64,000 nt of DNA, from assembly GCA_035650735.1 (NCBI GenBank), contig DASRGZ010000142.1, forward strand, positions 1 through 64,000, written 5' to 3'. This document shows, piece by piece, positions 33,167-41,824 of the stretch. Every line of letters starts with the position of its first letter. Position 1 is the stretch's first letter. Under the pieces are notes generated by a model. That model ran no database searches, was not told the origin of the DNA, and was given only the letters and a program-made list of their open reading frames with translations. The DNA comes from Chthonomonadaceae bacterium. GTDB taxonomy: Bacteria; Armatimonadota; Chthonomonadetes; Chthonomonadales; Chthonomonadaceae. A program made the translations under genes and the position numbers.

Positions 33167-34369
33167 ATGAAAGCCTCTGCCGGTCTACTCAAGAGCCGTC
33201 CCTTCTGGATCGTCTGCGCGGCCCTTTTGGCGATGTACTTCAGTCTTGCCTGGAGCAGTTTCCGGCAGGAGCGTCTTAATCACGCGCTCATTCAAGCGAT
33301 TGAGCGCGACGATGCTGTCGCCGTCCGCGCTCTGTTGGCCCAGGGAGCCGATCCCAATGCGGATGCCTCCGGCGAAGTGCCTCTCTGGATACGCCTGGAA
33401 GACCTCTTCCACCACCACAAGGAGAGCCACACTCCCGTTCTGTTTCTGGCGATAAACGTGGGGGGGTTCTCCAAGAAGTTCTCTGCTGGCAGTTCTGACA
33501 GTGCTCAGGAGGACGCGACATCCGTCGCGATTATCCAGGCTCTCCTGGACAAGGGCGCGAGGCCGGACGTGCGCGAGGACGGCAGAACGCCGCTGGATAC
33601 CGCCATTTACCTGGACCTGACGAATGCGGCCCTTGTCCTCGCGCGGCGCGGCGCAAAACCAAGCCGCAAGATTAACGGCCAGCCCGCCCTCATGGTTGCT
33701 GTTTCCAATCTCAACCCCACGCTAGTCAAGCTTGTTCTCGATTCGGGCGGCGTCCCGGATGCACAGACCGGCCAGTGGTCGCTTAAGGACGCTTATAATG
33801 CACTGGATCGTCCGGATAAGCCTCCTGGGACCGGCATGCAGGTGATGCAGGCGCTGCTGGAGGCGGGAGTAAGTCCGGACACCATCTATCCGAACGCTCC
33901 CTTGCTGTATTCCGCCGTGGAGCGGAAAAGATACGAGGTCGTCCGTCTCCTCCTTGAGCACGGCGCAAACCCCAACCCGAAACCTGGCGTCGGCGATCTG
34001 CCCCTGCTCTGGTACGCGCTGGACGCCAAGCCGCAGATGCTTCAGATGCTGCTCGATGCCGGGGCGGACGCCGATGCCGTCAACGCTCAGGACGGCGAGC
34101 CTCTGCTCTGGTATGCCGTCATCCATAAAATCGCGGAACCGCCCGCAGAAAGGGCGCTAAAGGTCAAGCTGCTCCTGGATCACGGCGCTGACCCTCTGCG
34201 CCCAATGCCCGGCGCGGCCTCTCATGCTGCCCTGTGGGACTATGCCGCGCAGCACGCCGCCGACTGGCACATCAGCGGCGACATTCTGGCCCTGTTGCAG
34301 AGTGCGGCTGCGAAGCGCCCGCTGCCTAATCTCCCCGCCCCACGCCGAGGCCGTCCGCAACGCGGTTGA
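33167..34369 (+). CDS. Membrane-anchored ankyrin-repeat protein
   Basis: N-terminal TM segment; repeated LL..GAD/GAN.P and G.TPL motifs. Confidence 0.85.
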
Positions 34370-34910
34370 TATAGTTGAACCAGGAGGCGATGAGGTTGAT
34401 CTGGAGGATGGCGGTATCGTCAAAGCCGTGCGCCCGCAGGCTCTCCACATCCTCCCGCCGTACCTGCGCAGGCTTCAGGGTTAATTTTGCGACGTAATCG
34501 AGCATGGCGCGCTCGTTGGGCGGAAGGTTGGCGGTGCGGTAGTCGCGGCGGAGGGCCGCCACAAGCGCCTCATCGTTGGTGACCCGACGCAGAAACTCTG
34601 CGTGCGACTCGATTCAATAGAAGCACTCGTTCAAGACAGAGACGAGGGTGGCGATCATCTCGTGCTGGCGGCGCGACAGCGGCAGTTCGGGCGAGAGCAG
34701 CGTGCCGTAGGTTGCAAAGGCATGGTACAGCGTATCGGGCAGTAGGCTGTGCGAATTGACGATGCCTGCCCCATCCTCCTGGTTCTCCACCGCTTGCAGC
34801 GCCGGAACCGGCACGCCGTATTCCGGTGGATAGAGTTTCCGCTGCCCGCGCAGCGCTTCCCGCAGCTTCTCGTCCGCCCCCTTCAGGGGAACCGTCTTAA
34901 TCCAGGTCAT
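34326..34910 (-). CDS. AhpD/carboxymuconolactone decarboxylase-like peroxidase, predicted selenoprotein (CxxU)
   Basis: ORFs 34614-34910 and 34326-34562 are one frame joined across TGA 34614-34616: [24 protein letters not shown]...[13 protein letters not shown] hairpin follows the UGA. Confidence 0.85.
34587..34603 (-). promoter_or_regulatory. Putative bacterial SECIS element
   Basis: ACGCAG-AGUUU-CUGCGU; the stem starts after a 10-nt spacer following the UGA. Confidence 0.6.
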
Positions 34911-35563
34911 CGTGCTTTCTCCTCACGCGCCGCTTCCGGCAGGTAGCCCACCAGGAAGCGATCTAGCTCCTCCGGGTCGAACCCATAGGGGCCTCTGCCG
35001 CCCTGATAGACCACCCTTCCCTCCGCCGACAGCACATACAGTCGCTCCGGCCAGCCGTTGAACGCATTCTCCGCCGCGTCGTCCATGCTGTCAACCAGGA
35101 CGGGTATGGAGAGCTTCAGATCCAGCGCGCACGCGTCGGCGATCTCCTGTCGCTCCGCAAACGTCTGTGGCTGCGCGTACTCGATTCGCTCCTGCCGGTT
35201 GGAATCGAGCGCCCAGCCGTCGGTCGGATGCGCCTCGCGAATGTAGACGACCAAAAACGCGGCGCGGTCTCCGTATTGCTTATACAGCGCTTCCAGGCGA
35301 CCTGCCTGGCGACGGAACGGGGGTCAGGTATAGCTGCCGAAGATGAGCACGCACGGGCGCGCCGCGCCGGGCGCGCCCAGAATAACGGGCCTCCCTCCTC
35401 CAAGCGGAGTCAGCGCCAGCAACGGCGCGCGGTCTCCCACTTGCAGGCAGTCCGGCTCGAAGTAGCCCATCTCCTGCAAGAACGGCACGGCCTGCGGTGG
35501 AATATCCGGCGGCAAGTTGGCCGACACAGGCTCCCGGCTCTCTGGCGGCACAGCGGACATCAA
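34907..35563 (-). CDS. Iodothyronine deiodinase-like protein, predicted selenoprotein
   Basis: ORFs 35324-35563 and 34907-35254 join in frame across TGA 35324-35326: VLIFGSYT-U-PPFRRQ...FLVVYIREAHPTDGW...VDSMDD...WPERLY. GAGGAG RBS; start is TTG 35563 or ATG 35560. Confidence 0.9.
35293..35309 (-). promoter_or_regulatory. Putative bacterial SECIS element
   Basis: CCAGGC-AGGUC-GCCUGG after a 14-nt spacer following the UGA; the loop resembles the E. coli fdhF SECIS (GCAGGUC). Confidence 0.7.
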
Positions 35564-35816
35564 GACTTCTCCTCCTCTAGCGGCATGGCTTCCTGCCAGC
35601 CTACATCATTATAGTTTCGCCAGGGTTAATTTTTGCTTAACACAGGATTAATTCTTGTTTATCTGCCCGCCCTTCCAGCGGCTCTTCTCCTCGCCCGGCG
35701 TCCTTGCCGTGCCCAGCGTGATGTGCTATATTAAAGGGATGGAAAGGGAGGGCGCGGAGAGAGCCTGCGGGAAACCAGCGCCTATCAACGGATTATTATA
35801 TTGGGTAATGAATAGC

Positions 35817-35923
35817 TAACTCAAGTTGCTACCTTGCCTCTTCGAGAAGGCAAACGGTGATGCAAAAGCCGGTTTCCAGAGCGATTCTCTCTCAAACGTG
35901 TTCCTAGGTAGCAACTTGGGTTA
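35817..35923 (+). mobile_element. MITE family B, copy 1 (~107 bp)
   Basis: 17-bp inverted ends TAACTCAAGTTGCTACC / GGTAGCAACTTGGGTTA; identical to 41718-41824. Confidence 0.88.
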
Positions 35924-36005
35924 GGTAATCCCTCCCAACGGTGTGGACGTATCTCCTCAGCAGCAGGCTGCGTGAGATTGATCCACACGGCTGGGAGTGT
36001 CTACC
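35924..36005 (-). mobile_element. MITE family A, copy 3 (inverted)
   Basis: Reverse complement of 20584-20665; TSD AATGAATA at 35807-35814 and 36006-36013. Confidence 0.9.
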
Positions 36006-41682: not shown

Positions 41683-41717
41683 TGTCGCGTCTCATCCTTC
41701 AAAAGGAGGTAACTATC

Positions 41718-41824
41718 TAACTCAAGTTGCTACCTTGCCTCTTCGAGAAGGCAAACGGTGATGCAAAAGCCGGTTTCCAGAGCGATTCTCTCTCAAACGT
41801 GTTCCTAGGTAGCAACTTGGGTTA
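41718..41824 (+). mobile_element. MITE family B, copy 2
   Basis: Identical to 35817-35923; TATCTA at both ends (41714-41719 and 41823-41828). Confidence 0.88.

Follow-up and report, generated by a model that had tools for sequence, protein, structure and literature searches.

Two adjacent minus-strand genes of a Chthonomonadaceae genome, carried by a stretch of 64,000 nucleotides (the window), were found to encode a deiodinase-like and an AhpD-like protein, which together very likely yield two soluble selenoproteins and may act as non-exclusive redox partners. In this reading, to which a probability of about 0.45 was given, Sec79 of the deiodinase-like enzyme would attack a small oxidised substrate, with a halogenated phenol or a peroxide-type oxidant as candidates, Cys144 in helix alpha3 would resolve the oxidised Sec79 into a selenenylsulfide, and the C96-x-x-U99 centre of the AhpD-like protein would re-reduce the enzyme with electrons from a cellular source encoded outside the pair. 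The recharging by the AhpD-like protein was proposed because the two genes are adjacent in three lineages and fused in one.

Under translation table 11 the region was read as four open reading frames (35324-35563, 34907-35254, 34614-34910 and 34326-34562). When TGA was read as Sec, the four frames merged into two genes (Table 1), as the initial annotation had described them, including the ATGA overlap. To judge from the sequence, this overlap is likely to couple translation of the two genes, which would presumably also be co-transcribed, and the ribosome-binding site of gene 2 lies 8 nt upstream of its ATG. An alternative TTG start of gene 1 at 35563 would add one residue. The pair was flanked by an ankyrin gene and a radical-SAM/TRAM gene, and the ankyrin gene (33167-34369) is convergent with gene 2 and overlaps its 3' end by 44 nt. 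The closest named relatives were Chthonomonadaceae, Armatimonadota. Contigs of two public runs, X2 (marked as a possible source) and X6 (not so marked), matched the window without differences across both TGAs, so these are not sequencing errors. An element of 110 nt bounded by inverted ends, probably a miniature mobile element, was present at 35813-35927 and 41714-41824 of the window and gave 73 BLAST matches in the genome, mostly 96-100% identical among the matches listed. One of its copies separates gene 1 from the radical-SAM gene, and a promoter-like match at 35824-35795, a consensus match only, overlaps this repeated element.

Table 1. Features of the deiodinase-like/AhpD-like gene pair (window coordinates).
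Feature	Position	Strand	Basis
Gene 1, deiodinase-like selenoprotein gene, 217 aa, U79	34907..35560	minus	PF00837, Dio3/Dio2 matches
Gene 2, AhpD-like selenoprotein gene, 194 aa, U99	34326..34910	minus	TIGR01926, PF02627, PDB matches
ATGA stop/start overlap (gene 1 stop TGA and gene 2 ATG)	34907..34910	minus	
Gene 1 ribosome-binding site, AGGAGG	35571..35576	minus	sequence
Gene 2 ribosome-binding site, GAGGAG	34919..34924	minus	within last codons of gene 1
In-frame TGA, putative Sec79 of gene 1	35324..35326	minus	80-homologue codon comparison
In-frame TGA, putative Sec99 of gene 2	34614..34616	minus	110-orthologue comparison
Gene 1 SECIS-type hairpin, 6-bp stem, AGGUC loop	35290..35313	minus	comparative
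Gene 2 SECIS core hairpin, 7-bp stem, GUU loop	34587..34603	minus	comparative

Each gene carries one in-frame UGA at the catalytic Cys/Sec position of its family, as had been claimed for both. In alignments, U79 coincided with the catalytic residue of mouse Dio3 and Dio2, and U99 with the second Cys of the CxxC in AhpD-like structures. Only TGA or Cys codons were found at these sites in homologues: position 79 was TGA in 37 and TGC or TGT in 43 of 80 deiodinase-like homologues, and position 99 was U in 109 and C in one of 110 gene 2 orthologues. A hairpin was scored as SECIS-type when it stood at SECIS distance 3' of the UGA with a G early in a small loop. The hairpins noted in the initial annotation are present after both UGAs, with the gene 1 hairpin starting 13 nt downstream of the first UGA base, but the energies of these single copies were not significant (z of -1.16 and -0.98), so hairpin energy was rejected as proof of a SECIS and the evidence is comparative. 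Among gene 1 homologues, a SECIS-type hairpin followed codon 79 in 49/52 Sec forms compared with 9/49 Cys forms, and for gene 2 it was detected in 103 of 107 Sec forms. The stem pairs of gene 2 were preserved in 96-107 of 107 sequences and the GUU loop in 106, and the hairpin was nearly invariant even at synonymous positions, six codons being nearly fixed whereas flanking codons varied; because the stem showed a single compensatory change, it is supported by conservation and not by covariation.

The Sec machinery was located elsewhere in the genome, in line with the earlier remark that selABCD is not in the window: a tRNA-Sec with UCA anticodon (71.7 bits, cut-off 47), and selA, selB and selD, all over their profile cut-offs, selD itself containing an in-frame TGA. 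A genome lacking this machinery and homologues lacking Cys/Sec at the two sites had been named as grounds for giving up the selenoprotein reading, and the opposite was found for both. It is very likely from these comparisons that both UGAs encode active-site selenocysteine, and we infer its insertion with high confidence. A reading of the TGAs as normal stop codons in two genes undergoing decay is hardly credible: the non-significance of either hairpin alone, and a search that found no expression data, would fit such decay, but a catalytic-codon TGA is shared across several phyla, the frames are intact on both sides of the TGAs, and SECIS hairpins track with TGA in a genome with full Sec machinery. 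The pseudogene reading was thus rejected on the machinery, the TGA/Cys alternation, the SECIS hairpins and the identical public contigs. Taken alone, the selenoprotein status of the two genes is ordinary. Other candidate selenoproteins of this genome (G000) included two BCP-type peroxiredoxins (TPG-U) and three TlpA-like proteins (C28:51152, C215:44415, C83:11521, C151:3062 and C79:5834), and further candidates (C27:7031, C143:707, C170:24060 and C210:16160) came from a noisy genome-wide Sec scan, which missed gene 1 and was not taken as a count.

The gene 1 product matched PF00837 (E 3e-31, 108.9 bits, cut-off 27) and has a thioredoxin fold with the motif FGSYT-U79-PPF. Its match to NF038285 (deiodinase_rel) reached 209.4 bits, below the cut-off of 250, over 167-341 of 347 positions, and the N-terminal EF-hand part of that family is absent from gene 1. 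Mouse Dio2 and Dio3 were the best PDB matches by sequence and by fold (PDB 9h48 and 4tr3; TM 0.80-0.82 by target length), followed in fold by ResA/TlpA proteins. An N-terminal membrane anchor is a feature of iodothyronine deiodinases; no transmembrane segment or anchor was found in the gene 1 product, whose highest 19-residue hydropathy was 1.3. Residues were mapped by manual count on the alignments. The core active-site network is common to Dio2/Dio3 and the gene 1 product, with Ser167, Thr169, Sec170, Tyr197, Glu200 and His202 of Dio3 corresponding to S76, T78, U79, Y106, E109 and H111. Glu259 and Arg275 aligned with E172 and R189 in this protein, but the latter position was Arg in just 9/52 Sec forms. 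Differently, His219 was replaced by P131 (T133 by single-sequence alignment), Cys168 by Y77 and Cys239 by I152, and Asp211 and Phe258 were also replaced, the conserved Cys of the bacterial family being another one, Cys144. According to section 3 of PMC12025243, His219 is the proton relay of Dio3, Cys168 and Cys239 are its resolving cysteines, and His202-Arg275 forms the substrate clamp.

Cys144 was present in 90/101 homologues and lies inside a predicted helix (134-147), and alpha3 is a known site of resolving cysteines in Tpx and some PrxQ in the text available from PMC4749874. We hypothesise from this conservation that Cys144 is the resolving residue. However, its place in the alignment is one residue ahead of the resolving cysteine of Tpx-type enzymes and is taken by a hydrophobic residue in BCP and Dio3, so that Cys144 may be structural instead. 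The peroxiredoxin motif Pxxx(T/S)xxC, as given in the same text of PMC4749874, was absent from gene 1, where LIFGSYTU has the Ser and no Pro. Deiodinase-like genes were present in 63 of 201 Planctomycetota genomes searched; such genes are common and are truncated at the UGA in gene calling.

The gene 2 product matched TIGR01926 (122 bits, cut-off 81.8) and PF02627, and its best PDB relatives (2pfx, 3c1l and 6k40) are uncharacterised AhpD-like proteins. Its catalytic motif is CFY-U99, and the AhpD relay is complete (E84, C96, Y98, U99 and H103, each in 109-110 of 110 orthologues), with Glu118, Cys130, His132/Tyr, Cys133 and His137 as counterparts in M. tuberculosis AhpD and PA0269, as described in the accessible part of PMC3141380. 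A paralogous AhpD-like gene was also observed (L272; G000:C220:13746-14219), which carries CKF-U and a SECIS-type hairpin, is extended by a long stretch at the N terminus, and adjoins prepilin-type (DUF1559-like) genes and an amino-acid permease. Its sequence is judged broken or misassembled, because an internal TAA replaces the Gln of its L052 relative.

The evidence for partnership came from gene linkage. In the order, 18 of 68 genomes had a deiodinase-like gene and 45 an AhpD-like gene, and the two lay within 2 kb in 7 of the 18 deiodinase-bearing genomes, in four arrangements: deiodinase first (this genome and G725), AhpD first (G712, G713 and G714), divergent (G709), and with a paralogous AhpD 1.5 kb on (G719). 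An AhpD-type gene stood within 4 kb, always on the same strand, in 34 of the best 80 GTDB deiodinase-like loci, a count inflated by kin, compared with 0.64 expected by chance from the PF02627 density in 50 of these genomes; 25/43 Cys forms and 9/37 Sec forms were linked. The linked genes were placed in three clades of a 184-domain tree, Chthonomonadaceae, Terriglobia and Planctomycetia, and a single clade of linked deiodinase-like genes was rejected (p-AU 0.004, 40 rows), the groups compared having been named after the tree was seen. The AhpD partners came from at least four AhpD subfamilies in a quick tree.

Several recurrent surroundings were also observed. In Terriglobia, four loci (L108, L112, L121 and L130) showed a deiodinase-like gene (Sec), a TonB-dependent receptor and an AhpD-like gene (Sec), the last slot being filled by two different AhpD subfamilies, and three Planctomycetota loci (L072, L073 and L077) showed a deiodinase-like gene (Cys), an amino-acid permease and a gene 2 orthologue (Sec). 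A NitT/TauT-type ABC transporter and a small no-family protein recurred beside AhpD orthologues and some deiodinase-like genes (loci L137, L141, L142, L146, L148, L071 and L127).

Single-chain fusions, with the deiodinase-like domain followed by a double AhpD, were found in 6/80 loci, two of them with CFY-U, and also in L348. P0003 looks like the same kind of fusion, divided during gene calling at its two catalytic sites, a judgement made without its DNA, and P0047 has the reverse domain order, so that Planctomycetota contain fusions in both orders. The AhpD part belongs to a different, multi-domain AhpD subfamily from gene 2, and the fusions look exported, unlike the window pair, on signal peptides judged by eye. 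Among the matches listed, no PDB chain covered both fusion domains (best TMq 0.37, Sestrin2). The predicted model of one natural fusion (pLDDT 90.6, pTM 0.82) had no control and was not counted as evidence. In Planctomycetia, a cassette of a DUF1559 prepilin-type gene, a small no-Pfam protein, a double or quadruple AhpD (Cys/Sec) and an EF-hand deiodinase-like protein was observed at ten loci (L055, L058, L065, L075, L078, L086, L087, L094, L098 and L110), fused in several, and its double AhpD has a weak fold resemblance to Sestrin2.

The pairing is real but not universal. Just 2/96 deiodinase loci from evenly drawn samples were accompanied by an AhpD gene within about 5 kb: one of 26 in Acidobacteriota, on the opposite strand and with a weak deiodinase match, one of 60 in Planctomycetota, which is a fusion, and none of 10 in Armatimonadota. 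The Acidobacteriota sample comprised 26/28 matches, omitting the search centre (itself linked) and one unpublished genome, and the Planctomycetota sample 60/87 matches, omitting the weakest matches and genomes that the first set already contained; for these 86 loci 0.84 was expected by chance, and the observed linkage was judged to be no higher than chance level. Three classical CMD queries added no CMD neighbours in the same 86 loci, and no neighbour family occurred in more than 5 of the 96 loci, so a wider conserved pathway around the pair was rejected. The gene 2 orthologue usually stands alone: a deiodinase neighbour was found in 1/80 metagenome loci (mean 5.3 kb) and in 0/29 phylum loci at 1.5 kb. 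In 11 of the 18 order genomes the genes were apart or one was missing, many of these genomes being fragmented. Conserved adjacency, which the initial annotation had proposed as a check, was thus borne out by the three clades, the fusions and the 7/18 order genomes but not by the evenly drawn loci, and linkage of the AhpC/AhpD type is strong in three clades, fused in one and at chance level elsewhere.

How far these observations favour electron exchange depends on the alternatives. A serious, though minority, possibility is that two independent redox selenoproteins stand in a small selenium or oxidative-stress operon, sharing promoter and Sec supply but not electrons, with the AhpD-like protein serving peroxiredoxins elsewhere and thioredoxin or small thiols reducing the deiodinase-like protein. 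Both genes are usually found apart, excerpts of PMC2398784 and PMC13188914 describe selenoprotein genes that lie side by side without a known link, and the genome has many other candidate selenoproteins, among them the two Sec-type BCP candidates, which would be more conventional AhpD clients than the deiodinase-like protein and count against the partnership. However, the linkage holds for Cys forms too, so Sec co-regulation is not the whole explanation, and fusions in either domain order and four arrangements within one order also speak against it. The functional relay of the initial annotation accordingly survives in part: a link is backed indirectly by the repeated neighbourhood and the fusions, but a dedicated or obligatory relay is unsupported because so few evenly drawn deiodinase loci are linked and the AhpD orthologue mostly lacks a deiodinase neighbour, and Sec need not be present on both sides, as Cys serves in many of the linked or fused pairs.

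Electron flow in the other direction, with the deiodinase-like protein as a TlpA-like reductant and the AhpD-like protein as terminal peroxidase or reductase, is unlikely. The thioredoxin cis-Pro position holds Pro171 in 99/101 homologues where Dio3 has Phe258, the closest folds after Dio3/Dio2 are ResA/TlpA, and the AhpD-like PA0269 is weakly peroxidatic according to the part of PMC3141380 available, all of which would suit such a flow; but the protein lacks a UxxC pair, having UPPF, and retains the Ser-Thr-Tyr-Glu-His network known from deiodinases, features more suggestive of a site for a substrate than of a disulfide shuttle. It is very improbable that the protein is a true reductive dehalogenase acting on iodinated or brominated phenols and served by a dedicated, obligatory Sec reductant. 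This reading would draw on the eight Dio3 residues with identical counterparts and on uptake-type genes (TonB receptor, amino-acid permease) often seen in linked loci, but the Arg275 equivalent is seldom Arg, Asp211 and Phe258 are not retained, the pair is not obligatory, and halogen-metabolism genes were not recurrent among the neighbours examined; the reductive dehalogenase suggested in the initial annotation is left unsupported, as His219, Cys168 and Cys239 are missing. Of the readings compared, a non-exclusive partnership was judged the most likely.

The consulted portions of the surveys PMC1088965 and PMC2398784 described both families as selenoproteins in 2005 and 2008, in agreement with the statement of the initial annotation that bacterial Sec forms of both are on record, and both are listed in the extracts of the reviews PMC9312934 and PMC13188914. 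Gene 1 shares the thioredoxin fold, Sec/Cys alternation and bacterial SECIS with the bacterial deiodinase-like selenoproteins of the Sargasso Sea (PMC1088965) and GOS (PMC2398784) surveys, but the review extracts give their motif as UxxC, compared with UPPF in gene 1. Gene 2 shares CxxU, proton relay and SECIS with the published AhpD-like selenoprotein (TIGR01926/COG2128; partial texts of PMC1088965 and PMC13188914), the sole difference being the neighbour gene. In Mycobacterium tuberculosis, one operon likewise joins a redox enzyme of thioredoxin fold, AhpC, to the AhpD-type protein AhpD, which re-reduces this peroxidase (excerpts of PMC6300522 and PMC3141380), whereas the window pair is known from genes alone, its partner is no peroxiredoxin (no PxxxT/SxxC) and both catalytic residues would be Sec. 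Adjacent Sec genes thought to serve one pathway, as here, are described for grdAB, prdBC, SAO and Tso, and a deiodinase-like/AhpD-like operon is not among the operons named in the same extract of PMC13188914. In the main texts of open-access literature, searches for a pairing or fusion of the two families yielded surveys, reviews and papers on other subjects but no report of either, and the literature consulted, in part as excerpts, gave no function or partner gene for bacterial deiodinase-like proteins.

Catalogues of deiodinase-like proteins in bacteria go back to 2005. As far as was found, the recurring partnership and the fusions of two known selenoprotein families give this uncharacterised family its first testable partner: the repeated linkage names a candidate reductant, and Cys144 a candidate resolving residue. 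Since the proteins are small and soluble and have natural Cys-only relatives, both ideas are directly testable. A broader proposal, which we consider rather doubtful, is that bacterial deiodinase-like enzymes would have AhpD-type proteins as their natural reductants, which would have been recruited on three independent occasions and fused to them in Planctomycetota. The window pair would then be the smallest version, soluble and all-selenium: a module of two proteins for reductive dehalogenation or detoxification, with its resolving cysteine in alpha3. If true, this would offer a model in bacteria of the ancestral deiodinase cycle.
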